From IMG/VR virus record IMGVR_UViG_3300045988_163275, positions 32,001 through 96,000 of that record: a stretch of 64,000 bases of DNA. One strand, 5' to 3'. The notes beneath the pieces are model-generated. The model searched no databases. It saw only the letters and a list, made by a program, of their open reading frames with translations, and was not told the DNA's origin. A program made the position numbers and the translations under genes. The DNA comes from a virus. Lineage: Duplodnaviria; Heunggongvirae; Uroviricota; Caudoviricetes. Below are positions 32,326 to 46,900 of the stretch, in pieces (within the stretch, counting starts at the first letter, position 1; each line of letters starts with the position of its first letter).

Positions 32326-32777
32326 AATGGGCGCTATAAGGCGCACAATCATTGTGTTCAGGCTGGTGGAAAGAACTTCTCCAGCGTGTGGTTGATAGCC
32401 TTATCAATGTGCATCAGGTGGCCAAATTCAGTGTGCCACTTCACTCGAACCCCAAGACCGGCAATGGAATCGCTTTGTAGAGCTAGAGTTAGTGCCGCAT
32501 CCTCGTATTGAGCACAGCGAAGCGATTGAGCTAGACTATGGCATGACGGGGGGCGCTCTAAAGGTTGAGATTAGAGCGGCCTCGGCAGGCTACTTACTCA
32601 GACAATGGAATGTGGATTGTTCTACCAACGCCACACTCCAAGATGGTGGAGCTCAATTGTACTTAAAGAACAGAGCAACACTTTATGGAGTTAAAAACAT
32701 CATGCTAGCTCCAGGGATTGAAAAAGAACTTGGTAACTAATGCACAAAAACGAACTTGGCGCAGAGAATAAATTTTG

Positions 32778-35700
32778 ATGAAAATAATCGATAACCTTAA
32801 CAACCTATTAGGTGACGAGCTTCAACAGACGCTGACACCGAATACAAAGTTAAAGATTGCTGCGTCTTGCTTTTCTATTTATGCGTATGAGGCTCTCAAA
32901 AAGGAGTTAGCGAAGATAGACTCACTTGAGTTCATCTTCACATCACCTACTTTTGTCGCAGATGAAGTTACCGATAAATTCAAAAAAGAAAAACGAGAGT
33001 TCTTTATTCCCAAAGCAGGGCGTGAACGCAGCCTTTACGGAACTGACTTTGAAATACAGTTAAAGAACAAGCTCACTCAAAAGGCGATCGCCAAAGAGTG
33101 TGCAAACTGGATCAGAAAGAAAGCGACATTCAAATCAAACAAAACTGATTCTCCAATGCAGTCGTTTGTTGTGACGGAAGCACCTAGACAGCAAACAGAG
33201 ACAATGAGTGCAGTTTTTGCTCCGGTTAGCGGGTTTACGGCGGTTGATCTAGGGTATCAGCGAGGAAATGCTATTTCGAATTTTGTGCAAAAAATCGATG
33301 AGCCAAATTTCACAGCCCAGTACTTACAGTTATTCGACCAAATTTGGAAAGACCCTGCGAAGCTTCAAGATGTTACTAAAACAATTTGCGAGCATATAGA
33401 GTCTGTCTACCAGGAAAACTCGCCTGAGAAAGTCTATTTCATTATTTTGTATAACATTTTTAATGAGTTCCTTGATGATATTACAGAGGATGTATTACCA
33501 AATGATCGAACCGGCTATCAGGACACCTTGATTTGGAACAAGTTATTCAACTACCAAAAAGATGCCGCGACTGGGATTATCAATAAGTTAGAGACCTATA
33601 ACGGCTGCATTCTGGCTGATAGTGTTGGTCTTGGTAAAACATTTACAGCGTTAGCTGTCATCAAGTATTACGAGCTCAGGAACAAGTCCGTACTTCTACT
33701 GTGTCCGAAAAAATTGGCAGATAACTGGCTCAACTTTAATCGAAACTTAAAGACAAATATTTTTGCTAAAGACCGTTTTAGTTACGATGTTTTGTGTCAC
33801 ACAGATTTGAGTCGAACCTCTGGCGAATCCTTCGGTACTCCGTTGAATAGAATAAACTGGGGTAACTATGACTTGGTCGTCATTGATGAGTCGCATAACT
33901 TTAGAAATAACGATGCAGTGAAAGATCGAGAAACTCGATATCAGAAACTGATGAATAAAGTGATTCGCGCTGGCGTAAAAACCAAGGTGCTGATGCTATC
34001 AGCGACACCAGTGAATAACAGATTTACTGACCTGAGAAACCAGCTCGCGTTAGCTTATGAAGGCGAGTCGAGCAATCTCACAAAGCATCTTAAAACCACA
34101 AAAAGCGTAGAACAGATCTTCAACCAAGCACAAGCCGCATTTAACGCTTGGTCCAAACTCGACCCAGAGACGCGAACAGCTAAAGCCATACTCGATGCCT
34201 TAGATTTTGACTTTTTTGAACTGCTTGATAGCGTCACTATCGCTCGCTCACGAAAGCACATCACAACTTTCTACGACACAACAGATATTGGCCATTTCCC
34301 TGAACGTAACAAGCCAATCTCGTTTCATTGTCCGCTTACTACTCGTTCGGATGTAGTAAGCCTGAATGAGATCTTTGAACAGCTTAAGCTACTCAAACTA
34401 TCTGTTTATGCGCCAGTGAGTTATATCCTCCCGAGTAGATTGAAGAAATATGAGGAGATGTATGACACGGAAGTTGAAGGCGGAAAAGGTAAGTTAAAGC
34501 AAAGCGACCGTGAAAAAAGTTTGGTTGCATTGATGACAACGAACCTCCTAAAGCGTCTTGAGAGCTCCGTATACTCGTTCAGAAGCACCTTGCAATCTCT
34601 CCATGATAACCATGTTCGTGTTCTAGGTATTATCGACGAATTCTATAAGCGAGACGGGCAAACCGAAGTGAGCAGTCTCGTTGAAGCGCTAGAGTCTATT
34701 GAAGCAGATGAAGACGATATGCCTTCTTATCACGATATGGAAATCGGTAACAAAATCAAAATTAAGCTAATGGATATGGATCTTCCATCCTGGCAGCAGG
34801 ATTTAGATGGCGATTTGGAGCTGATCAAAGGGTTACTAGATTCTGTTAGCAAAATTAAGCCAGAAGAAGATGCTAAGTTGCAGCATCTGAAATCACATAT
34901 TGCTGCAAAAATAAATAATCCGATAAATCCTGGAAACCGGAAAATCATCGTGTTCACGGCGTTTGCTGACACCGCTCAGTATCTGTACGAGCAGTTGTCA
35001 CCTGTGATGTTAAGCGAGCATAGAATCCATACTGCGATGATCACTGGTGGTGCCAGTTTACCTAAGACCACCTTAAAAACCGGACGAAAAGGTTACGACA
35101 CACAAGAAGTGCTCACCTTGTTTTCTCCAGTTTCCAAATCGAAAGCCAGTGTATTACCTGACGAACCCGCTGAAATCGATTTGTTGATTGCTACAGACTG
35201 TATCTCTGAAGGGCAGAACTTACAGGATTGCGATTACTTAATTAACTTTGATATTCATTGGAATCCAGTTCGGATTGTTCAGCGCTTTGGGCGTGTTGAC
35301 CGTATTGGCTCGGCGAATAAATGTATTCAGTTAGTTAACTACTGGCCTGATATATCGCTGGATGAGTACATCAACTTAAAAGAACGTGTTGAAAGTCGAA
35401 TGACGATTGTTGACGTAACAGCGACCGGTGATGACAACGTTCTAAGTTGTCAAGCGAATGATGTGTCGTACCGTAAAGAGCAGTTAAAGAAACTACAAGA
35501 AGAAGTCATCGAGCTTGAAGATTTAAAAACGGGGGTTTCTATCACCGATCTAGGTCTAAACGAATTTCGAATGGACCTGCTAAATCTAATGAAACTCTAC
35601 GGCGAACCAAGAAATGCACCAAGCGGCATGCATGCGGTGGTTGAGGCTAAGCCAGAATTAGGGTTATTGCCTGGCGTGGTGTTTGCGCTGAAAAACGTTA

Positions 35701-36110
35701 ATAACAGTATCGATAGAGATCTGCAAAACAGGCTCCACCCTTATTACCTTGTCTATGTATCGAATGAAGGGGACATCGTCGCTAATCATTTTGAGGTAAA
35801 GAGACTATTAGATTTAATCCGAAGTAGCTGTAAAGGTCAAACAGCACCGCTCAGTGAGATTTGTGCTTTATTTAATCGCTTAACGCAAGACGGTCGAGAT
35901 ATGCAGTGTTACTCTCACCTTCTAACAGATGCCATAAAAAGCATGGTTGAAGTTAAGGAAGAAAAAGATATTGATAGTTTGTTCAATGGTGGCGCTACCT
36001 CAGCTTTAGTGAATACATTTGCCGGGCTTGATGACTTTGAATTGCTGGCATTTATTGTGATCCAGCAAAAGCAGCTGATGGAAAACAGTGCCCAGGATGA
36101 GGTTAGCTAA
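32778..36110 (+). CDS. SNF2-family helicase with ~250-aa N-terminal domain of unknown function
   Basis: motif I ADSVGLGKTFTA, motif II LVVIDESHNFRN, motif III LMLSATPVNN, C-terminal helicase motifs ATDCISEGQNLQDCDYLINFDIHWNPVRIVQRFGRVDRIGS; 1110 aa; AT-rich. Confidence 0.85.
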   Translation: MKIIDNLNNLLGDELQQTLTPNTKLKIAASCFSIYAYEALKKELAKIDSLEFIFTSPTFVADEVTDKFKKEKREFFIPKAGRERSLYGTDFEIQLKNKLTQKAIAKECANWIRKKATFKSNKTDSPMQSFVVTEAPRQQTETMSAVFAPVSGFTAVDLGYQRGNAISNFVQKIDEPNFTAQYLQLFDQIWKDPAKLQDVTKTICEHIESVYQENSPEKVYFIILYNIFNEFLDDITEDVLPNDRTGYQDTLIWNKLFNYQKDAATGIINKLETYNGCILADSVGLGKTFTALAVIKYYELRNKSVLLLCPKKLADNWLNFNRNLKTNIFAKDRFSYDVLCHTDLSRTSGESFGTPLNRINWGNYDLVVIDESHNFRNNDAVKDRETRYQKLMNKVIRAGVKTKVLMLSATPVNNRFTDLRNQLALAYEGESSNLTKHLKTTKSVEQIFNQAQAAFNAWSKLDPETRTAKAILDALDFDFFELLDSVTIARSRKHITTFYDTTDIGHFPERNKPISFHCPLTTRSDVVSLNEIFEQLKLLKLSVYAPVSYILPSRLKKYEEMYDTEVEGGKGKLKQSDREKSLVALMTTNLLKRLESSVYSFRSTLQSLHDNHVRVLGIIDEFYKRDGQTEVSSLVEALESIEADEDDMPSYHDMEIGNKIKIKLMDMDLPSWQQDLDGDLELIKGLLDSVSKIKPEEDAKLQHLKSHIAAKINNPINPGNRKIIVFTAFADTAQYLYEQLSPVMLSEHRIHTAMITGGASLPKTTLKTGRKGYDTQEVLTLFSPVSKSKASVLPDEPAEIDLLIATDCISEGQNLQDCDYLINFDIHWNPVRIVQRFGRVDRIGSANKCIQLVNYWPDISLDEYINLKERVESRMTIVDVTATGDDNVLSCQANDVSYRKEQLKKLQEEVIELEDLKTGVSITDLGLNEFRMDLLNLMKLYGEPRNAPSGMHAVVEAKPELGLLPGVVFALKNVNNSIDRDLQNRLHPYYLVYVSNEGDIVANHFEVKRLLDLIRSSCKGQTAPLSEICALFNRLTQDGRDMQCYSHLLTDAIKSMVEVKEEKDIDSLFNGGATSALVNTFAGLDDFELLAFIVIQQKQLMENSAQDEVS

Positions 36111-36113
36111 TCT

Positions 36114-36800
36114 ATGTACTCACCTTGGATATTTCCTGACAAAGCAAAGTTCGGTCGAGTCGTGCCGAAGAACAAAATATACGAACACAGCGCGGCAAGC
36201 GCTGGATTGAAGTCACTTTTTGTAGAGCAAGTAGAGCAAATCCTTTGGGCTTACAAGCTATCGCCTAGCACGCTGAATATTCCTCAAACCAGTGAGGTCA
36301 GTGAAATACAGGTTTTCAGTGTGAAGCTTAAAGGTGACTCGATAGACGACAGCGTACTAAAAGCCATTGATTTGGCGATACCTTTTCCCATTCTATTTGA
36401 GGTATGGGAAGCTCGCGGTGAGCAAGGCCACTACGTTGCTTGCTATAAGCGTAAGGCAGAAAATGATCAGTCAAAATGGTTTTGTAGCCGCTATTTACGC
36501 TCAGAAACCTTCTATTCAAGTGATTCATTAGCAGTGACTTCAGAAGTTTTGGGGTTGCCTACCGCCATCGATATGGCGGAGCTGTATCAAAAGCTTCTTA
36601 CTCGCTTGTTACCCATACCCCAACGAGCCGCTGAGAGTATTGAAGAGGTCATTGAACGCTTGATGGCAATTCAGGCATTGGAAAAGCAAATCTCGCAATA
36701 TAAGAAGAAGGTTCATGCCGAGAAACAGTTTAACCGCAAGGTTGAGCTCAATAAGCAGTTAAAGAATTTAAGGTGCGAGCTTCAAGAGTTACTCGCATAA
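36114..36800 (+). CDS. 228-aa protein of unknown function, coiled-coil C-terminus, coupled to the helicase
   Basis: ATG 3 nt after helicase stop; C-terminal heptad-rich segment; no catalytic motif seen. Confidence 0.7.
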   Translation: MYSPWIFPDKAKFGRVVPKNKIYEHSAASAGLKSLFVEQVEQILWAYKLSPSTLNIPQTSEVSEIQVFSVKLKGDSIDDSVLKAIDLAIPFPILFEVWEARGEQGHYVACYKRKAENDQSKWFCSRYLRSETFYSSDSLAVTSEVLGLPTAIDMAELYQKLLTRLLPIPQRAAESIEEVIERLMAIQALEKQISQYKKKVHAEKQFNRKVELNKQLKNLRCELQELLA

Positions 36801-36873
36801 AGAATAAACAATTTCAATCAGTTAAATAGTGCCACATGCTTTTTATGCAAGGCATCACGCAAAAGGTGAACAC

Positions 36874-38796
36874 ATGGACAAATTAAAGATGCACAGCCCC
36901 GACATGACGCAGCAAAACATAGAGAAAATTCAGGCGTTGTTTCCGAACTGCGTGACGGAATCAAGAGGAGCTAACGGAGAGCTAAAGTTAGTCATTGATT
37001 TTGACCAACTTAAACAAGAGCTATCAAATTCAATCGTTGAAGGCCCGCAAGAGCGCTATCAGCTGAACTGGCCCGGTAAGCGAGAAGCACTACTAACAGC
37101 GAACGCACCTATTGCAAAAACATTAAGACCTTGTCGAGAAGAAAGTGTTAATTTTGATACCACAGAAAACCTCTTTATTGAAGGTGATAACCTTGATGCG
37201 CTAAAAATGTTGCAAGAAACCTATTTGGGCAAGGTTAAGGTGATTTATATAGATCCGCCCTATAATACGGGTAAGGATTTTATATACGAAGACGATTTTG
37301 CTGAAAATTCTGATGGGTTTTTGAAGCGGTCAAATCAAAAGGATGAAGAAGGCAATCGCCTTGTAGCCAATACCGATTCCAACGGTCGCTTTCACTCAGA
37401 CTGGTTGAGCATGATATTTTCGAGACTTAAACTTGCACGCAATATACTAAGTAGTGATGGAATTATCTTTATTAGTATAGATGAAAACGAGCTTGATAAC
37501 CTCTTGAAAATAGGAAAGGAAATATTTGGTGAAGAGAACCACATAACTACGTTTTGTTGGGAAAAAAAGAAGAAACCATCTTTTCTTAATAAAAATGTAG
37601 GTTCGAAATTCGAGTATATTGTCACCTTTTCAAAGAATCGTGATTACACAGGTGCATTTTCCATTGATCTTACAACTGAAGGTAAAAAGTACCCCCTGAA
37701 TAATGCAGGGAACTCACTCGGAAACCTTGTTTTTCCAGCAGGTTCGGTACGATTCAACTTGCCAGACCAGATTATAGAACCGCAAGATATGTCTGAGGGT
37801 AAAATAAAAACCAGGTTAATTAATAGGTTGGAAATAATTGGAGGTAAAAACGTTAATGAATTTATCCTTGAGGGTGAATGGAGATATTCTCAGAATAGAT
37901 TAAATGAAATTCTAGAAAATCGAGAAGAAATTATAATCAGCAAAGTTCCGTTTAGGCCAAATCATGTAAAAGCAGGAGGTGAGATAAAAAAAATGCACAA
38001 CCTCCTAAGTGTCGCTCATTATAAAGTTTCAACTAATGAGGATGCGGATGCCGAAAGTTCAGAGTTGATGGGGAATAAATACTTTGATTACACCAAGCCT
38101 TCAAATTTAATCAAACTATTAATCCAAGCAATAACTTATGACGATCAAGAATGTCTAGTATTAGATTTTTTTGCGGGTTCATCAACAACCGCCCATGCCG
38201 TGATGCAACTTAATGCAGAAGATGGCGGAAATCGAAAATTTATCATGGTTCAGTTGCCTGAAGAGTGTGATAAAAAATCAGAAGCCTTCAAAGCTGGCTA
38301 CAAAACAATTGCTGAGATATCAAAAGAACGCATCCGCCGTGCTGGTGCAAAAATATTAGAAGGGGAGTGCCACAAAGACTGGAATAAAGACGTTGGTTTC
38401 CGAGTGCTTAAAGTTGATACATCCAATATGGCCGATGTCTACTACTCGCCAGAGCAGGTTTCTCAGGGTTCGTTAGACTTATTGGTAGATAATATTAAAT
38501 CAGACCGCACTGATGAAGATTTACTTTTCCAGGTTCTACTTGATTGGGGCGTCGATTTAACCTTGCCAATTAGAAAAGAAACGATTCAAGGTAAATCGGT
38601 ATTCTTTGTCGATGATGATGCACTGGTGGCCTGTTTTGATCTGCGCATAAATGAAGCTTTGATTAAAGAGTTAGCCATAAAAGAACCTCTTCGCGTAGTG
38701 TTCCGTGATGACGGCTTTGAATCTGATGCAGTAAAAATCAATGCTGAGCAGATTTTCAAGCAAGTGTCGCCATATACTGAAGTTAAAGCGATTTAA
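36874..38796 (+). CDS. mod: Type III restriction-modification Mod subunit (beta-class N6-adenine methyltransferase)
   Basis: [13 protein letters not shown] ... [23 protein letters not shown] (motif IV) precedes [16 protein letters not shown] (motif I); ~640 aa; ATG with AAGGTG SD (track ORF starts GTG 36829). Confidence 0.85.
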
Positions 38797-38891
38797 GGGG
38801 GGAGCATGACAAATTTTACCGGATTAAAATTTGCACACAGCCTTGTCGCAGACAAGGTGTGCCCAAAGGGTTGCGTACAGGGAGGTGCGCA

Positions 38892-41800
38892 ATGAAACTT
38901 AAATTCAAAGTCCAGCCTTATCAAACTGTTGCCGTAGAGTCGGTTGTTGACTGCTTTGCGGGGCAACCTAATACCTCCGGTATAACCTACCGAATCGATC
39001 CTGGCATTGCCAAAGATAAATTTGGCAATGCTGGCTGGGATATGAGTGACCAGGATGGGTTTAAAAATGCTGAACTTGCGATCACTGAATCGCAGTTATT
39101 GCAAAATATCCATGGTGTTCAAAGTAGACAGAACCTCCCTGTTTCAGAAGCGTTAGCCAGCAATGCTAGCTCTAAGATTAATCTCGATGTTGAAATGGAA
39201 ACCGGTACAGGTAAGACATATTGCTACATCAAAACTATCTTTGAGATGAATAAACGCTATGGCTGGAGCAAATTTATTATCGTAGTGCCTAGCATTGCCA
39301 TTCGTGAAGGTGTTTACAAGTCGCTACAAATCACAGGTGAGCATTTTGCCCAGAATTACAACGGTAAAAAGGCACGGTTTTTCATCTATAACTCAAAACA
39401 ATTGCACCAGTTAGAGAGTTTTTCTTCTGACAGTGGCATCAATGTCATGATCATTAATATTCAAGCCTTTAATGCATCAGGAAAAGACAATCGACGTATT
39501 TATGAAGAGTTGGATGACTTCCAGTCTAGGCGTCCTATTGATGTTATTAGTGCAAACCGTCCAATCCTGATTTTGGATGAGCCGCAGAAGATGGAAGGTA
39601 AGAAGACATTAGATGCCTTAGCCAAATTCAAACCACTGATGGTACTTCGATATTCGGCCACGCATAAGACAACACATAATAAGGTGCATCGTCTGGATGC
39701 TCTTGACGCTTATAACAATAAGCTGGTTAAGAAAATTGCAGTTCGTGGTATCTCAGTAAAGGGTTTAGCGGGCACTACAGCCTATCTATATCTGGAATCC
39801 ATCGAAATCTCAAAAAAAATGCCAGTGGCTCGTATAGAGATCGAGGTTAAACAACAAAATGGCATCAAACGCATACCCAAGAAGGTCACTAAGGGCGATA
39901 ATCTTTTTGATCTTAGTAATGGTTTGGACCAGTACCGTGATTTTGTGGTTACTGATGTCAACGCGATTAACGACACAGTTGAATTCAAAAATGGCCATGT
40001 TTTAACCGCGGGCGATGCCACGGGAGACGTGACCGAAGAGACCATTCGCCGCATACAGATTCGCGAGACAATTAAAGCACACCTTGAAAAAGAAAAAATA
40101 CTTTTTAACCAGGGTATAAAGGTTCTCTCTCTCTTTTTTATTGACGAAGTCGCAAAGTATAGGGACTACTCTCAAGCCGATGAAAAAGGTGATTATGCTC
40201 GCGTTTTTGAAGAAGAGTATTCCTTGCTTGTACAGGAGTATCTTGATGAGTTGTCCCTTTTGCCAAGTGAGCAGACTGATGCCTATAAAGCCTATCTATC
40301 GGCCATTGAAGGCTCTAGAACGCATAATGGTTACTTCTCAATTGATAAGAAATCAAATCGTCTTCAGAACCCCGGCTTTAAAGTCCGTGGTGAAGATGCC
40401 GGGCTATCAGACGATGTAGATGCCTATGATTTGATTTTAAAAGATAAGGAAAAGTTACTTTCGTTTGAAGAGCCTACTCGATTTATCTTTTCACACTCGG
40501 CCTTGCGCGAGGGGTGGGATAATCCAAACGTATTTGTCATGTGTATGTTGAAACACAGCGACAATACTATCTCTCGTCGTCAAGAAGTTGGACGTGGTTT
40601 ACGTCTGGCCGTCAATAAACATGGTGACAGACAAGATCATCCGGCAACTGTGCATGAAATTAATGTCTTGTCGGTGATTGCAAGTGAAAGCTATAAAGAC
40701 TTTGTCACGAATCTGCAAAAAGAGATCAGCGAGTCTCTCTCAGCGAGACCTAGAAAAGCAGATGAAGCTTATTTTACGGGTAAGACAATTACAACAGCTG
40801 ATGGACCTGTAGAAGTAACACCTGTCATGGCTAAGCAAATTTATAAGTATTTGCTTAAAAATGATTATACCAATGACGTTGACGATTCAATTGCGCCATC
40901 ATTCCACCAGGCTAAGGCTAGTGGGCAGTTAGCGCCAATGCCTGCTGAGTTAGAGCCTTACCGCGAGCAAATATTGACCCTGATTGACGGTGTTTATAGT
41001 GAAGCGCAATTGCCAGGTGTTGGTGATGATCGTAAACCTAAAAACAATCCGTTGAATGCTAATTTTGATAAGAAAGAGTTTCAGGAGCTTTGGCACAAAA
41101 TCAATCGCAAAGCGGTTTATAAGGTTGATTTTGATTCGTCTGAGTTGATTAAAAATTGTATTCGGGTACTCAATAAAGAGCTTAAGGTAACGCCTCTTCA
41201 GTACACGATTCAAGATGGTGTTCAATTGGATGGCATTACCGACGAACAACTCAAAGCTGGACAAAGTTTCAAGGTGAAAAACACTGAGACTGAAACTCAT
41301 CAATCGAGCATTCATTCTGCTGTTCGTTATGACTTGGTTGGTAAGTTGGCTGAAAATTGTGTGCTGACTCGCAAAACAGTCGCCGAAATACTGATGGGTA
41401 TAGAACCTGTAGTATTTGCACAATTTAAGCAGAACCCTGAGCATTTTCTCGCTGAGGCTTCACGCCTTGTGAAAGAGCAAAAGGCATCTGTGATCATCGA
41501 GAAGCTATCATATGATCCAACGAACGAATCTTATGATGTTGATATATTCACGGCAGAGCAAAAAATCACTGATATGACAAAAGCCGTTAGTGGCGTTAAT
41601 AAGCATATTTATGATTATGTTGTCGTTGATTCACAAGGCATTGAACGGGACTTTGTTACCGAGCTTGATACAAGCAAAGAAGTCGTGGTTTATGCAAAAC
41701 TGCCTCGTGGTTTTCTGATACCGACGCCTGTTGGCGACTACAACCCTGATTGGGCGATTTCTTTCAAAGAAGGAAGTGTTAAACACATTTACTTTATTGC

Positions 41801-41969
41801 AGAGACTAAAGGAACGATGTCTTCGCTTGAATTGCGTGGCATAGAAGATCGCAAGATTGAATGTGCTAGGAAATTCTTTGAAAAAATTAATGCAGAGATA
41901 ACGAGTGAAAACGTCAAATATGATGTTGTAACGAGTTACTCGAAATTAATGGAAGTCATAAGCGGTTAG
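38892..41969 (+). CDS. res: Type III restriction enzyme Res subunit (helicase + PD-(D/E)xK nuclease)
   Basis: [23 protein letters not shown]-terminus, Walker [20 protein letters not shown]; C-terminal YNPDWAISF ... [10 protein letters not shown] nuclease motif; strong GGGAGGTG SD. Confidence 0.85.
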
Positions 41970-42270: not shown

Positions 42271-44610
42271 TTAATCTTCTAATTCATCTGTCGGTGATGT
42301 CTTCTCGCGCCTGTCATCTATTGCCTGTAACGCAGCAATGATTTCAGCTAATGGCTTCTCCCGGTACATCTCGACGATCTGTGATTTGGTGTATTTCTTC
42401 TCGCCAATTTCCACACGCCCGCTGGCGCTCTTGGGCAGGTATCCTTCCTCCAGCATGTATTCAACCAGAGACTCGACGACGTCCAGCCCGCGAGTCGGGT
42501 CGAAGTAGAATTTCCATGAGCATTTGCCAAACGGAGGCGCGACTTTGTTTTTAATGCACTCGGCGCCAACGTCCTGTCCGATCTTCTCTTTGCCATCCTT
42601 CATGACGGATGCACCCAGACGGATGCGCACCGACGCGTAGAACTTCGGAGAGTCGCCACCCGGAGACGTAGTCGGATCGCCAAACATCACACCAATTTTG
42701 GTACGCACCTGGTTCAAGAAGATGATGCACGCGTTGTACTTACGCGCCCAAAGCGCCAGAGTAGGGAAGTTCGCACTTGTCGCGCGCGCCAGCGCCGTGT
42801 TGTCGTTCATGTTCAGCTGATCTTTGTCCTTCGCAGTGCCTTCTGCCATCTTGTCGAACTTCTCAGCCTTCGAGTTCGGAACCATCGACGCCAGAGAGTC
42901 GGCTACGATGCAGATAGGGGCTGTTTCCGGAATAAGCTCTTCGTCGCGCACCAGCTTGAGGATTGTGCCGATCAGCTCTACGGAGTCTTCGAAGGTATCC
43001 GGCTGTTTGTAGACCCACTGACCGTCGTCTTCGTCGGCGTTCAGTCCGTTCGCTACCGCCAGACCAACGTCGAAACTGTTTTCGTGGTCAAGGAATACGG
43101 CCAGACCATCCTGTTTTTGTGCTGACACCATCGCAGCTGTCGCGAGGAATGTGTTGTGGCTGATAATCCCGTTAGACCAGAAAGAGTGTGTTTCCGGCAT
43201 CGCTACGTCGAACGTTGGTGCTTCACCTTCCTCAATAGCCACGACTTCGTCGTAGAACAAGTTAGAGTCAATTACCGCTGCCAGTTGTGCAAACAGATGC
43301 TCGTTAAAACGATTCTTTCTGCTAATGAAGGAGACATAGATTTCTCGCAGTTTGTCTATTCCGACACGATCGCCGCGGCCAATAACGTGATCTACCAGAA
43401 CGTAGTCTTTACGAGAGGTCTTGGTGAGTGACTCGTAGAGTGATTTCACTAAGCCGCTGATGTGCGGAACGTAGCCTAAATAAGTGCGGTCAAAACTAAT
43501 GTCCCGTTTGGTTGCCACTGCTAAACGAGCCGGAGACTCGAACCCAATCGTTGACAGGAAAAGGTCGTAGTTAGAGCCACTGAATGACAGCCGGTAATAT
43601 ATGTTTTTATAACCTGCGACGTGTTTTTCAGAGATAGTTGACGTAATCCCCAGATTCAGGAGCATGAGGCGAATTTGCTGTAGCAGCAGCCCACTCGCGC
43701 TCACAACCTCAATGCAGCGACCATCATTGATGTGGCATTCCAGCTCAAAGTAGCCGCGAAGGAATGCAATTTGAGCCTCGCTATTGGCGCGACGCACACT
43801 CAACGGAACCTGCTTGCCAGCAGCTTTCTCATACTCCAGACCATATTCTTTAAAAAGCAGCGAACGCACCTCTTTGCTAAACAGCACATGGTCTTCCGAG
43901 CCGTTATGTTTTCTCGTAACTGGCATCTTGTCTGATACCAGCGAAATGAGGCGGTAGTACTCATCCTTGATGAATGGATCTGTGTTAGAAAAATGCACAG
44001 AATTTTCAGAGGCCACGTATCCGTCAGCAATTAAATAGCCCATCAGTTTTGCGATATTGGCATCCAAGTGCTGATCGCCGAATTGATGTGTGCCAACCAT
44101 TGAAGGAATCGTGTCGCCTACACTGATTTTTTCAGCATACCGCCAGACGATATTGCCTAAGTCGTCAACCACACGAATTGGGTGACGGAACGTAGCCTCG
44201 ATGTAACCCCCTGATGCCAGCTTAATGCGCTTGAATTTGCGACGGTTGTTCCATGTCAGGTGTGAGGTCTTCTCTATCACGCCATTTTCATTGATGAGTC
44301 CAACGTTATGCTCTACATCGCGAGTAGTGCATGTTGCTTTGTGCCCCTCAATCTCAAACAGTTCTTTCACTGTTACCATTCCACGCTCCGTCAGCAGCAT
44401 GGTGTCTGCGGTAACACATTTCCCCGCGCTTGGTGGCCCGAAGACTTCAACGATACGCCCACACGGAAAACCACCGTCGTAACGTCCGGAAATGGCTTTG
44501 TTCAGTGGAGGGAAACCGGAGTCAATCCAGTGGGAGACCTTCTGAATCTCGTCATTGCTGCCGATTTTCTTTTTCAGCGCCAGTGCCAGTGCGGATTTGC
44601 CTTTTGCCAT
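42271..44610 (-). CDS. recA: RecA recombinase interrupted by a 422-aa intein
   Basis: exteins total ~357 aa with GPPSAGK P-loop and IFLNQVRTKIGVMFGDPTTSPGGDSPKFYASVRIRLG core; ATG with AAGGAG SD. Confidence 0.9.
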   Translation of the reverse strand: MAKGKSALALALKKKIGSNDEIQKVSHWIDSGFPPLNKAISGRYDGGFPCGRIVEVFGPPSAGKCVTADTMLLTERGMVTVKELFEIEGHKATCTTRDVEHNVGLINENGVIEKTSHLTWNNRRKFKRIKLASGGYIEATFRHPIRVVDDLGNIVWRYAEKISVGDTIPSMVGTHQFGDQHLDANIAKLMGYLIADGYVASENSVHFSNTDPFIKDEYYRLISLVSDKMPVTRKHNGSEDHVLFSKEVRSLLFKEYGLEYEKAAGKQVPLSVRRANSEAQIAFLRGYFELECHINDGRCIEVVSASGLLLQQIRLMLLNLGITSTISEKHVAGYKNIYYRLSFSGSNYDLFLSTIGFESPARLAVATKRDISFDRTYLGYVPHISGLVKSLYESLTKTSRKDYVLVDHVIGRGDRVGIDKLREIYVSFISRKNRFNEHLFAQLAAVIDSNLFYDEVVAIEEGEAPTFDVAMPETHSFWSNGIISHNTFLATAAMVSAQKQDGLAVFLDHENSFDVGLAVANGLNADEDDGQWVYKQPDTFEDSVELIGTILKLVRDEELIPETAPICIVADSLASMVPNSKAEKFDKMAEGTAKDKDQLNMNDNTALARATSANFPTLALWARKYNACIIFLNQVRTKIGVMFGDPTTSPGGDSPKFYASVRIRLGASVMKDGKEKIGQDVGAECIKNKVAPPFGKCSWKFYFDPTRGLDVVESLVEYMLEEGYLPKSASGRVEIGEKKYTKSQIVEMYREKPLAEIIAALQAIDDRREKTSPTDELED
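43153..44418 (-). mobile_element. intein with LAGLIDADG homing-endonuclease domain inserted in the RecA P-loop
   Basis: starts CVTADTMLL after GPPSAGK, TFRHP block, LMGYLIADGYV and FLRGYFELECH dodecapeptides, ends IISHN followed by T; boundary codons checked by hand. Confidence 0.8.
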
Positions 44611-44612
44611 GA

Positions 44613-44879
44613 TTAGGCTCCTTTTGATTCGTTGATTCGCTTCGAAGCAGCGGCTTCGTCAAACTTGATTGCGTCGTGGTTCAGGTGTTTGGCGACGCGA
44701 GCGATGATCTTCACGACCTGCTCACTGACCAGCGCGAACTCACGCTCAGTAGCAGAAATGCCAGCAGCGCCCAGAATGTTCGGCAGCGCTACCACAGCGT
44801 GCTCGCCGTGGCAGAAAACAATCTCCTTTGCCAGCATGGTTGGCGTAGTTGCCCCGCCATTAATGATGGATTTCAGCAT
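44613..44879 (-). CDS. hypothetical protein (88 aa)
   Basis: ATG overlaps stop of flap endonuclease; ends 3 nt before recA ATG. Confidence 0.45.
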   Translation of the reverse strand: MLKSIINGGATTPTMLAKEIVFCHGEHAVVALPNILGAAGISATEREFALVSEQVVKIIARVAKHLNHDAIKFDEAAASKRINESKGA

Positions 44880-45823
44880 CAGCAATACCTCTCAAACGGC
44901 AGAACAAACACTTCCAGATCTTCCAGAAACGAACGGAAATTCAGCTCGTAACACATCTGTTCAAAGGCGCTCATATCGCGTGCGCCTTTAATCGACTCGA
45001 TTTCGCTGGGTGGGAATTTTGTGTCGATAAGGTTCATCAGCATCATGTTGCGCTTAAAGGCTTCGAGCATCCGGCAGCCCGTCTTCTCGTTGAAGGCGTT
45101 CTTTGCCAGCTTGTTGAATGCCGTCTTATAGCGACCTTTGTTGATGACAATGGAACCGTCGTTAATGCCGCGTACCATTGCGGCCACGCTTCCCCATTCA
45201 TGAAGCAGCTCTTTCGCGCCACCATCACCAATGCCACCTACGCCTTTGATGTTGTCCGAGTTATCGCCCTGCAACGCTTTCGCTTCCAGAAACGCGCGTG
45301 GGGTCGGCAGACCGGTCAGCTCTGCGAACTGTTCGAAGTTCACCTGCTTGTGCTTGGCGTCTTCACGCAGGCTTATCCAGCTCACGTTCTCACGAACAAG
45401 CTGGAGCCAGTCGCCATCGCCCGTTAGCAGATAGATATGGTCAACAGTCGGCTGCGGAGCCAGACGAGAGACCAGCATTCCAGCCAGGTCATCCGCTTCT
45501 GCGTCCTTTGCAATGAGTTGGTTAACGCCCAGCGCGGTCATCATTTTCAAGATGTACGGCTTCTGGATGGCAAAGCCTTCTTTCATCTTCTTCATGTCCG
45601 GGTCGTCGTCGCGGTTCGCTTTGTACTCCGGGTAGAAGTCGCGACGTTTGTCGCTGAATCCATCCCACAAGATCATTGGCCGGGCATGGAGAATTGAGGC
45701 GTAACGACGAACGTTCTTCACGAAGCCAAAAGTCGCCTGAACTTCCATCTCGCCGTTGTGTAATTTGTCGGATTGCTGGTGGTAATAGCCCAGGCTGTTA
45801 CCGTCCACAAAGAGATAATTCAC
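44879..45823 (-). CDS. 5'-3' exonuclease / flap endonuclease (FEN)
   Basis: NYLFVDGNSLGYY, EADD, LLTGDGDWLQL, GDNSDNIKGVGGIG; probable GTG start at 45821-45823 with GGAAGGAG SD (track ORF starts 45874). Confidence 0.8.
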   Translation of the reverse strand: MNYLFVDGNSLGYYHQQSDKLHNGEMEVQATFGFVKNVRRYASILHARPMILWDGFSDKRRDFYPEYKANRDDDPDMKKMKEGFAIQKPYILKMMTALGVNQLIAKDAEADDLAGMLVSRLAPQPTVDHIYLLTGDGDWLQLVRENVSWISLREDAKHKQVNFEQFAELTGLPTPRAFLEAKALQGDNSDNIKGVGGIGDGGAKELLHEWGSVAAMVRGINDGSIVINKGRYKTAFNKLAKNAFNEKTGCRMLEAFKRNMMLMNLIDTKFPPSEIESIKGARDMSAFEQMCYELNFRSFLEDLEVFVLPFERYC

Positions 45824-45842
45824 CGGTACACTCCTTCCAAAA

Positions 45843-45866
45843 AGTAAGGCGTCCGCAGACGCCTTA
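45843..45866 (-). terminator. intercistronic hairpin between SSB and FEN genes
   Basis: AAGGCGTC-TGCG-GACGCCTT; possible attenuator. Confidence 0.35.
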
Positions 45867-45883
45867 CTGGTCACGTTATGGGA

Positions 45884-46900
45884 TTACAGAGCGTCCAGTT
45901 CAGCCAGCAGGTTATCGAGACCTTCATCAGCTGGTACAGATGCAGCGGCAGCAGATGCTGAAGCACTTGCGGCTTCGGTGGCTTCCGGAGCTTTCGCTTC
46001 TTCCGGTTTGAACTCAGCTTCAGCTGCACGCAGGATCTCTTCATCAACCAGGCTGGTGGACTCTGGCGCCGGAGTATGTGCTGTAGCGACAGCAGCTGCG
46101 CCTTCCGTATGTCCAGTGATAGAGCCAAAGCCTGGCAGTCCAGCTGCGGCTGATTTTGCAGCGGAAGAAATGGCTGGTGAGGACATAGTTGCTGCCGGAG
46201 CCGCAATACCAATCAGACGACCCATAGTGCGAGCCGTGGACAGCAAACGAGTTTCGTCAGACTGGTTCGCATATGCGATCAGATCGTGTTGGGTAGTCCA
46301 GAGCTTCTCAGGAATGTCGCCTTTGTAGACTTTACGTTTCGGGGATACGTCGTACTTGGTGTCACGACCGGAACCGGTGCGTTTAATCAGGAACGCATAG
46401 CCTTCTTCTTTGCTCAGTGGGTTGCCAATATCGTCCGCAATATCTTCGGACATCACTTTGCAGATATCGTCGAAGACCGTAGACGGCAGCTCAATTAGCT
46501 GGCATTTCTCTGCGTCCGCAAAGTCTTCACGCGCAGACAGAACACCGTTGACCAGATAACGCGGCGTAGCACGCATACTATTAATGCGCTCTTCCATCGC
46601 TTTGTTGCCCTTAAAGCGAGCGCGACCTTCCATAACCATCTCACACAGCTGGCAAGCGTGGCCGTGGGTGTGTTGTTCGCAGATATAGGCGGTGGTTACA
46701 TCTTTGCCTTCCTCATTCTGATGCTTAACGTAGTGCATACCGAAAGTCTGGAAGAACACGCCATTCGGATCGTCCTTGTTCGGAAAAATGCGCAGATAGT
46801 TATTGCCATCTTTCAGACGGGTCAAATCAATGTTATTGCCACGTTTGGAAGCAATATCGCCACGGGTCTTGTTAAGCAGATCAAGTAATGACTTAGACAT
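45884..46900 (-). CDS. putative ssDNA-binding protein (gp32-like) with acidic C-terminal tail
   Basis: GNNYLRIFPNKDDPNGVFFQTFGMHYVKH followed by H/C cluster (CEQHTHGHACQLC); A/E-rich tail; AAGGAG SD. Confidence 0.55.
   Translation of the reverse strand: MSKSLLDLLNKTRGDIASKRGNNIDLTRLKDGNNYLRIFPNKDDPNGVFFQTFGMHYVKHQNEEGKDVTTAYICEQHTHGHACQLCEMVMEGRARFKGNKAMEERINSMRATPRYLVNGVLSAREDFADAEKCQLIELPSTVFDDICKVMSEDIADDIGNPLSKEEGYAFLIKRTGSGRDTKYDVSPKRKVYKGDIPEKLWTTQHDLIAYANQSDETRLLSTARTMGRLIGIAAPAATMSSPAISSAAKSAAAGLPGFGSITGHTEGAAAVATAHTPAPESTSLVDEEILRAAEAEFKPEEAKAPEATEAASASASAAAASVPADEGLDNLLAELDAL

Follow-up and report, generated by a model that had tools for sequence, protein, structure and literature searches.

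In the window, the 64,000-nucleotide stretch of DNA analysed here, a gene for a RecA/UvsX-like recombinase is interrupted in its ATP-binding loop by what is very probably a canonical class-1, endonuclease-containing intein, predicted to be competent for splicing and homing. It is located at insertion point c2, and the interrupted gene belongs to an SSU5-like phage-plasmid. The intein and its site were already known; added here are the attribution of the host gene to phage-plasmids and sequence evidence that the element spread recently.

The precursor gene (42271..44610) is located on the minus strand of the window, as are all features given below; the strand had not been stated in the initial annotation. 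In agreement with the continuous RecA frame that the annotation described, the gene is a single open reading frame for a protein of 779 aa (about 86.7 kDa). The Pfam profiles RecA, Intein_splicing and LAGLIDADG_3 all matched this one polypeptide, and the 779-position profile PHROG 9666 matched it end to end. The N-extein (44419..44610; 64 aa) ends in the Walker A sequence GPPSAGK (44419..44439), and the C-extein (42271..43152; 293 aa plus stop codon) starts with Thr (ACA, 43150..43152), which is the Walker A Thr and the predicted +1 splicing nucleophile. The insertion is thus located between the Walker A Lys and Thr, with GPPSAGK and the following Thr aligned to GPESSGK-T of E. coli RecA. The junctions proposed in the initial annotation, GPPSAGK followed by CVTADTMLL at one end and IISHN followed by Thr at the other, proved exact and delimit an insert of 422 aa (43153..44418). 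The predicted spliced recombinase has 357 aa and a mass of 38,975 Da computed from the translation, as expected from the ~39 kDa given earlier, and the excised intein would be 47.7 kDa; a peptide expected to span the junction is ...PPSAGKTFLATAAM.... Alignment of the exteins with RecA, which had been proposed as a check, was gap-free across the junction for the spliced 357-aa extein and E. coli RecA, and the Pfam RecA profile matched the spliced extein with E = 9.6e-43. The spliced extein was also collinear with the intein-less SSU5 recombinase SSU5_060 (358 aa). The same recombination module also comprises, upstream (44613..46900), an ORF of 90 aa and genes for a 5'-3' exonuclease and for a gp32-like single-strand DNA-binding protein, with an identical gene order in SSU5 and in plasmid relatives.

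In the intein (precursor residues 65-486), a LAGLIDADG endonuclease domain is predicted to interrupt a Hint splicing domain. Cys1 (codon TGT, 44416..44418), which is predicted to act as nucleophile in the first acyl shift, was invariant in 34 alleles, and so were T76 and H79 of the TxxH motif of block B (T76-F-R-H79; 44182..44193). Blocks F and G (PTFDVAMPETHSFWSNGIISHN; 43153..43218) contain D404, H411, the penultimate H421 and the terminal N422, which, together with P401 and T402, were invariant among distant relatives. All class-1 residues (C1, T76/H79, D404/H411, H421-N422 and Thr+1) are present and do not vary among the 34 alleles, and they are conserved in distant relatives. The two LAGLIDADG-type motifs reported earlier were recovered as LMGYLIADG (44020..44046; intein residues 125-133, acidic residue D132), which was read from the sequence and lines up with motif 1 of both PI-PkoII and the V-ATPase intein, and as LRGYFELEC (43735..43761; intein residues 220-228, acidic residue E227). 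They are ~95 residues apart, each with its acidic residue, and both were invariant in the 34 alleles; the Pfam LAGLIDADG_3 match spans intein residues 215-292.

Scores of the intein, endonuclease and RecA profiles were far beyond chance. PF14890 (Intein_splicing) scored 47.1 bits (cut-off 35.8), PF14528 (LAGLIDADG_3) 67 bits (cut-off 22.5), TIGR01445 36.6 bits (cut-off 24.5) and TIGR01443 16.9 bits (cut-off 15.6). A PDB search by sequence gave weak matches to the endonuclease domain only, and likeness over the whole intein came from a fold search with an AlphaFold2 model (pLDDT 85.7, pTM 0.87). The top Foldseek match of this predicted model was the TliVMA intein (7qss; E 4.8e-21, TM 0.71), and other top matches were PI-PfuI, PI-PkoII and PI-SceI, the full-length inteins being matched at TM 0.60-0.71. 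The predicted Hint fold matched intein and Hedgehog Hint domains, and the predicted endonuclease fold matched PI-PfuI, PI-PkoII, PI-SceI and I-DmoI. Together, profiles and predicted fold strongly indicate that the insert is a full-length class-1 intein with a LAGLIDADG homing endonuclease in the Walker A P-loop. With Hint blocks A, B, F and G present and curated cut-offs passed, the initial reading of the insert as an intein and not some other domain stands; its placement in the P-loop of a phage-plasmid RecA-family protein is borne out by the profiles, the fold model and the matches to plasmids and phages.

The suggestion that this may be an undescribed allele did not survive comparison with the literature. 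Topilina et al. 2015 (NAR 43:6631, PMC4513877) defined insertion point c in the P-loop of RadA/RecA, and Table 1 of that paper lists "RecA" inteins of E. coli, Enterobacter and Salmonella as c2 (65-486). The intein of the window, 422 aa at residues 65-486, has exactly these coordinates and is, by coordinates, taxa and site, the c2 element catalogued in 2015. The P-loop as a new insertion site in RecA is overturned by the same paper, in which archaeal RadA inteins (Pyrococcus horikoshii and others) form subgroup c1 at the same insertion point; elsewhere the Lys-Thr position of P-loops is termed a 'classic' intein site (PMC5050341). The initial annotation was right that mycobacterial RecA inteins are located elsewhere: Table 1 of PMC4513877 assigns them to site a (252-691) and site b (206-570). 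That paper terms the host bacterial E. coli RecA, mentions phage 0 times, and treats the E. coli intein by modelling only, as data not shown, without population or homing analysis. Our literature search found nothing relevant on inteins in SSU5-like phage-plasmids (pHCM2 and Cyrano included), and no published splicing or cleavage experiment on the P-loop c2 intein. Public databases already contain exactly this protein, which belongs to a cluster of 1496 members at 90% identity and to PHROG 9666; some RefSeq (PGAP) records call it 'intein-containing recombinase RecA' and most call it 'LAGLIDADG family homing endonuclease'. Because both site and intein are already in the literature and in annotation pipelines, a discovery claim for a new intein allele is void.

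Several results bear on the identity of the host gene. The cellular RecA equivalog TIGR02012 scored 156.1 bits, below its cut-off of 325.3; the RecA C-terminal domain PF21096 was not detected in the spliced extein, in which PF00154 was the only RecA domain match; and the best non-self PHROG was annotated 'UvsX-like recombinase'. The closest matches of the gene were on IncFIB non-mobilizable plasmids of about 110 kb, and its closest phage matches were the SSU5-like phages Cyrano, PhiR41_1 and vB_KpnS_p4727. The intein was present in 120 of 5426 complete E. coli genomes, all 121 copies being on plasmids. The sub-threshold TIGR02012 score, the absence of PF21096 and the constant location on plasmids or phages therefore identify the gene as a phage RecA/UvsX-like paralogue and not the cell's RecA. 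It belongs to SSU5-like phage-plasmids and is never chromosomal. A scan of species-representative genomes, based on a 7-sequence alignment and one narrow pattern and telling little of the true distribution, returned only two loci, one in a Kluyvera phage-plasmid and one in an Anaerolineae MAG. Related inteins were also present in terminase-like genes of viral contigs.

According to the mechanism that we propose, translation of the gene would yield a ~87-kDa precursor. With its ATP-binding loop interrupted between Lys and Thr of Walker A, this precursor is expected to lack ATPase activity. By standard class-1 chemistry, Cys1 would form a thioester that is then attacked by the +1 Thr (the Walker A Thr); Asn422 would cyclise with the help of His421, and an O-to-N shift would follow. 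The products would be a 39-kDa recombinase with an intact GPPSAGKT and the freed intein of 47.7 kDa. Once two related phage-plasmids come together in the same cell, the LAGLIDADG domain, released or embedded, would cut the intein-less allele around ...GCN GGN AAA/ACN TTY... (the slash marks the insertion point), and repair from the intein-carrying copy would transfer the intein and a few flanking bases.

Besides being selfish, the intein might have been co-opted as a post-translational switch, with splicing, and with it recombinase activity, depending on a signal, for example temperature, ssDNA, redox state or the lytic cycle. Its insertion point is shared with the conditionally splicing Pho RadA intein, a precursor with a divided P-loop is an obvious zymogen, and the intein is kept in about a third of the plasmids. 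However, no sign of regulation was seen in the sequence, recent spread (see below) together with an intact endonuclease is the pattern of a purely selfish element, contacts between extein and intein of the Pho type cannot, according to PMC4513877, be modelled in the precursor from E. coli, and intein-less alleles are still the majority. We therefore regard co-option as unlikely.

Selection on the intein was assessed in eight pairs of alleles, for which the dN/dS of the intein was 0.14-0.36. That of the Hint part did not exceed 0.14 in seven pairs and was 0.29 in the eighth; for the window allele and allele L007 it was 0.11, and the endonuclease part gave 0.22. Low values in both parts argue that both activities are maintained. 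The dN/dS of the exteins was 0.012-0.020; as proof of a working host gene after invasion this was set aside, because most of the extein divergence is older than the invasions. Decayed copies do occur: the E. albertii p3RM15116 allele is a pseudogene with its ORF cut to 614 aa, and truncated fragments are present in two plasmids (H82 and H83). Such copies are what would be expected if the insert were a dead relic unable to splice, and intein-containing copies were recombinase pseudogenes tolerated because the gene is dispensable. This is very unlikely, since 240 of the 248 plasmid copies with intein are full length, the intein portion is free of stop codons in all 34 extracted alleles, every catalytic residue is invariant, the Hint part shows the low dN/dS given above, and the allele is present in inducible or isolated phages (Cyrano, PhiR41_1 and vB_KpnS_p4727; PMC9928086).

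The recombinase gene was found on 755 PLSDB plasmids, of which those 248 (about one third) carry the intein. Alleles were compared in a convenience sample, not all 755 plasmids, of 34 alleles with and 64 without intein. Among the 34, nucleotide identity of the exteins went down to 80.0% (median 84.2%) and that of the inteins was at least 95.7% (median 98.6%), identical or 99.8%-identical inteins being found in exteins 80-84% identical. For the window allele and L007, dS was 1.11 in the exteins and 0.09 in the intein; over seven pairs with diverged exteins, intein dS (0.05-0.10) was about tenfold lower than extein dS (0.84-1.39). When exteins were clustered at 3%, 10 of 19 clusters held the intein and 6 were mixed, intein-containing and intein-less alleles being interleaved. 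These comparisons strongly indicate a recent spread of the intein among phage-plasmids from several genera of gut bacteria.

All intein alleles have G at -7 and G at -4 (GCG GGG AAA) in the 5' flank (44419..44425) and A at +3 (ACA) in the 3' flank (43150..43152), which we interpret as co-conversion flanks. The junction GCG GGG AAA/ACA was present in 34 of 34 intein alleles and the full combination in none of the 64 intein-less ones. One variant of the site, present in 8 loci, was never occupied by the intein. This signature consists of three synonymous positions only. Allele L025, which has the intein, and the intein-less recombinase gene of Klebsiella phage ST13-OXA48phi12.3 differ at 4 of 1077 extein positions, and three of these four are -7, -4 and +3. 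It is highly improbable that the intein is ancient, vertically inherited and repeatedly lost, without recent homing. The pattern of presence and absence alone fits loss as well as gain, and the few intein-less alleles that carry the 5' GCG GGG AAA could be products of precise loss or the ancestral type. Against this stand the tenfold lower dS of the inteins relative to their own exteins in the same allele pairs, the near-identity of inteins in exteins only 80-84% identical, and the flank signature common to different extein lineages. Transfer of the segment by ordinary recombination among mosaic phage-plasmids is conceivable in principle, but in every lineage compared the conversion tracts have the insertion point at their centre and extend no more than about 25 nt from it, which argues for repair of a site-specific break. 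We consider it likely that the 'E. coli RecA intein' of 2015 is a phage intein homing now, or very recently, in the SSU5-like recombinase gene, crossing Escherichia, Klebsiella, Enterobacter, Citrobacter and Cronobacter with co-conversion of ~3-25 nt.

The PGAP name in most records would make the insert a free-standing gene for a LAGLIDADG homing endonuclease instead of a protein-splicing element. This reading has practically no chance of being correct and is refuted by reading frame and domain order, given one ORF with RecA halves on both sides, an insert without start or stop of its own, the presence of Hint blocks A, B, F and G, and the other PGAP records that name an intein-containing RecA.

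Several implications follow. The host given in the literature is bacterial E. coli RecA, and the data presented here replace it by a phage-plasmid recombinase that is never chromosomal; this recombinase is hidden in phage-plasmid annotation because most RefSeq records misname the protein. The allele comparisons constitute unusually clean natural evidence of homing, with near-identical inteins in exteins whose synonymous divergence is saturated, before/after allele pairs that differ by the intein and three flanking bases, and an occupancy of about one third. Homing could be tested directly in organisms carrying these alleles. If the phage intein is indeed homing now, it would provide a natural, genetically tractable E. 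coli system for homing between co-resident phage-plasmids, and possibly also a switch on a phage recombinase.

Among known systems, the c2 intein of Enterobacteriaceae (PMC4513877) is like that of the window in host taxa, P-loop site and coordinates (65-486), but was assigned to bacterial RecA, whereas the host here is an SSU5-like phage-plasmid recombinase. The c1 RadA inteins of Pyrococcus horikoshii and Thermococcus are at the homologous position, where the Walker A loop ends in a RecA-superfamily ATPase, and the RadA intein structure 4e2t has a Hint fold similar to that of our predicted model (Foldseek E about 1e-4). Their hosts, however, are archaeal, their identity to the window intein is ~20%, and Pho and Tsib RadA contain mini-inteins without endonuclease; conditional splicing was shown for Pho. 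The c1 and c2 inteins have been interpreted as independent invasions (PMC4513877). The inteins of M. tuberculosis (site a, 252-691) and M. leprae (site b, 206-570) also interrupt a RecA-family recombinase, but at other sites and in cellular RecA. The M. tuberculosis RecA intein also carries a LAGLIDADG-type endonuclease domain. Their similarity to the window intein is weak: the model NF007072 matched only its endonuclease part (E 1.5e-4), and the Mtu RecA mini-intein structure matched the predicted model with a Foldseek E of 2e-3. The best structural matches over both domains were TliVMA (7qss), PI-PfuI (1dq3) and PI-PkoII (2cw7), at TM 0.60-0.71. Sequence alignment of these archaeal inteins with that of the window covers both LAGLIDADG motifs, although identity is 15-21% and the hosts are V-ATPase, ribonucleotide reductase and DNA polymerase. 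Finally, the 'classic' Lys-Thr P-loop inteins of phage terminases, DnaB, MCM and RFC (Novikova 2016, Kelley 2016) interrupt host proteins that differ from that of the window, but, as in the window, rely on the invariant Thr of Walker A to serve as +1 nucleophile.

An uninterrupted open reading frame of 779 codons (42271..44610, minus strand) encodes the precursor protein. Translation gave an N-terminal part of 64 residues ending in GPPSAGK, an insert of 422 residues (43153..44418, minus strand) that starts with CVTADTMLL and ends with IISHN, and a C-terminal part of 293 residues whose first residue is Thr. Joined, the two outer parts form a protein of 357 amino acids with a computed mass of 38,975 Da; the insert by itself would be 47.7 kDa. 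The joined exteins matched the Pfam RecA profile (E = 9.6e-43), and their junction aligned without gaps to E. coli RecA (GRIVEVFGPPSAGKTFLAT versus GRIVEIYGPESSGKTTLTL). The insert therefore separates the Lys of Walker A from its Thr (K72 and T73 in E. coli RecA numbering). It exceeded the Pfam cut-offs for Intein_splicing (47.1 bits, cut-off 35.8) and LAGLIDADG_3 (67 bits, cut-off 22.5), as well as those of the NCBIfam models of intein N- and C-termini. The residues of a class-1 intein are complete (Cys1, T76xxH79, the block F residues D404 and H411, the pair His421-Asn422, and a +1 Thr), and both LAGLIDADG motifs, LMGYLIADG (125-133) and LRGYFELEC (220-228), contain the expected acidic residues. 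An AlphaFold2 model based on a 13-sequence input was confident (pLDDT 85.7, pTM 0.87). Its top PDB fold matches were complete endonuclease-containing inteins, namely TliVMA (7qss; E 4.8e-21, TM 0.71), PI-PfuI, PI-PkoII and PI-SceI; lower matches were I-DmoI and mini-inteins, those of Pho RadA and Mtu RecA among them. All features that the initial annotation had described were present at these coordinates, and the insert is a real intein, as stated there. The G+C content of the intein (47.8%) equals that of the whole window, whereas that of the exteins is 53.9%; this gap is consistent with separate histories of intein and host gene.

On the RecA equivalog model the extein scored 156 bits, against a cut-off of 325, and a Pfam profile search detected no RecA C-terminal domain in it. 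Its best non-self PHROG was 'UvsX-like recombinase'. In the window, genes for a gp32-like single-strand DNA-binding protein and a 5'-3' exonuclease, and a small ORF, lie upstream of the recombinase gene, and a DnaE-type polymerase gene is close by; gene order around the recombinase is identical in phage SSU5 and related plasmids. The closest DNA matches were Enterobacteriaceae IncFIB non-mobilizable plasmids of ~110 kb and SSU5-like phages. The intein was found in 120 of 5426 complete E. coli genomes; all 121 copies were plasmid-borne, with no chromosomal copy among these 5426 genomes. Because of the RecA model score, the PHROG match, the gene order and the plasmid-only location, we conclude that the gene interrupted by the intein encodes the recombinase of an SSU5-type phage-plasmid and not a cellular RecA, which corrects the attribution of the host from the cell's RecA.

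Annotation and a PADLOC match identified a defence island adjoining the recombinase gene (32775..41969, plus strand), containing genes for an SNF2/HKD-type helicase (PADLOC C3a139, E 3.9e-122), a DUF4391 protein, and a methyltransferase and a restriction enzyme, both of Type III. Beside the recombinase gene, E. coli S56 plasmid B carries instead a Type I R-M system and a DUF4268 gene. In SSU5, the stretch examined on that side encodes a membrane protein and a lipoprotein and also has small hypothetical genes. The region appears to be a hotspot at which SSU5-like phage-plasmids vary in their defence genes.

The recombinase gene was present in 755 PLSDB plasmids and the intein in 248, at full length in 240 of these. 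By genus, plasmids with the intein over those with the gene numbered 123/199 in Escherichia, 71/314 in Klebsiella, 41/91 in Enterobacter, 6/25 in Citrobacter, 2/2 in Cronobacter, 1/49 in Salmonella and 0/63 in Yersinia; the SSU5 allele is empty. One intein-containing copy (L006; E. albertii p3RM15116, CP043239.1 39934-46196) is an unannotated pseudogene with an ORF shortened to 614 aa and an intein identity of just 91.9%; its plasmid, 62 kb long, resembles a degraded phage-plasmid. Intein DNA fragments, ~99% identical and covering 46% and 19% of the intein length, were found in PLSDB on E. coli plasmids NZ_CP075717.1 (23737-24320) and CP057895.1 (13746-13988), which suggests that they are rearranged or decayed copies.

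We compared 34 alleles with and 64 without the intein, drawn from IMG/VR contigs as well as from plasmids and phages. In the intein-containing set, nucleotide identity of the exteins had a minimum of 80.0% and a median of 84.2%, and identity of the inteins a minimum of 95.7% and a median of 98.6%; identical inteins occur in pairs of alleles with exteins 80-84% identical. Between the window and locus L007, dS was 1.11 for the extein and 0.09 for the intein, with an intein dN/dS of 0.17 overall (Hint part, 0.11; endonuclease part, 0.22). The junction GCG GGG AAA/ACA (slash, insertion point) was present in 34/34 intein-containing alleles, across all extein lineages, and the full combination in 0/64 empty ones. 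As a before/after pair, the extein of intein-containing locus L025 and the gene of Klebsiella phage ST13-OXA48phi12.3, which has no intein, show 4 differences over 1077 positions, three of them at -7, -4 and +3. Converted tracts in other lineages reach to about -19 on the 5' side and +9 on the 3' side. When exteins were clustered at 3%, the intein was present in 10 of 19 clusters, and 6 were mixed. Together the divergence, dS, flanks, before/after pair, tracts and interleaving show, at the level of sequence, that diverged alleles have received the intein recently and repeatedly and that co-conversion was very short. Such a pattern is the prediction of endonuclease-driven homing, not of vertical descent with loss, and provides clean natural homing evidence in a tractable system. 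In a comparison of the 30 nt on either side of the junction, one empty-site variant (8 of the 64 intein-less loci) differs from occupied sites at -7, -4, +3, +7, +9 and +12. It was never found occupied in the sampled alleles and may be a poor or resistant endonuclease target.

These results demonstrate the anatomy of the intein and its predicted fold, show that its removal restores the host protein exactly, and show that the intein is polymorphic and has recently spread horizontally with co-conversion. By established intein chemistry, Cys1 would form a thioester that Thr+1 attacks, followed by cyclisation of Asn422 and an O-to-N shift. Splicing would regenerate the Walker A motif, and the precursor should therefore be inactive beforehand. 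Judging from its family and the population pattern, the LAGLIDADG domain probably cuts empty alleles near GGN AAA/ACN, and the break would be repaired off the occupied copy once two related phage-plasmids co-occur in one cell. A regulatory role, by analogy with the Pho RadA intein, is possible but unsupported.

Distant relatives (28-48% identity) occupy the same Lys/Thr (or Ser) point. In uncultured bacteria they interrupt genuine cellular RecA (P0011, P0013, P0014 and an Anaerolineae MAG, L013); the P0011 protein, encoded on a contig of 550 kb in assembly GCA_027484465.1, has the RecA C-terminal domain. They are also present on other phage contigs, in RecA-like genes (P0007, L037, L039-L041, L044). 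In alignment A1, P0011 and P0015 have lost the first LAGLIDADG motif and P0018 and P0019 most of the endonuclease domain; shrunken relatives at this RecA site in other organisms reach ~250-270 residues. These appear to be decaying or minimised forms of the same family, the expected stages of a homing cycle. Still more distant relatives are in another P-loop protein and in terminase-like genes. The single viral contig IMGVR_UViG_3300042270_000237 (98,845 nt) carries two related inteins, one in a RecA P-loop (L037, 48% identical to the window intein) and one in a terminase-like gene (L047, ...ALIIG/C...SHN/TPKG, 24%). Two further IMG/VR contigs (L042, L043; lengths 66 and 150 kb) carry relatives with 31-32% identity in the P-loop of a different ATPase (...ATNGGK/C...NHN/TE...).

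The exact window protein is already public, in a 90%-identity cluster of 1496 members, and PHROG 9666 (full 779 positions) matches both intein (E 1.4e-298) and exteins (E 1.6e-239). Some RefSeq records use the product name 'intein-containing recombinase RecA', and most 'LAGLIDADG family homing endonuclease', a widespread annotation that could be fixed; further names for this protein in public records are 'recombinase RecA', 'hint domain-containing protein', 'Protein RecA' and 'RecA/RadA recombinase'. We found no splicing or cleavage experiments on this intein in the literature, the word 'phage' is absent from the survey of Topilina et al. 2015 (PMC4513877), and the intein goes unmentioned in the papers found on SSU5-like elements. 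That survey sets five RadA/RecA insertion points, a to e (PMC4513877). In agreement with the initial annotation, the mycobacterial RecA inteins are at other sites (a, 252-691; b, 206-570; PMC4513877). Point c lies within the P-loop (PMC4513877), and the Lys/Thr position has been named the 'classic' intein site (PMC5050341). Subgroup c1 comprises archaeal RadA, among them that of Pyrococcus horikoshii with its well-studied mini-intein; c2 hosts are Enterobacter cloacae BWH 29, Enterobacter sp. MGH 26, eight E. coli strains and Salmonella enterica 557928, all entered as 'c2 (65-486)' (PMC4513877). The suggestion that the P-loop allele might be undescribed is contradicted by these entries, the database copies and the RefSeq naming. 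Residues 65-486 are those of the window intein, which matches c2 by coordinates and taxa and is thus an intein catalogued before.
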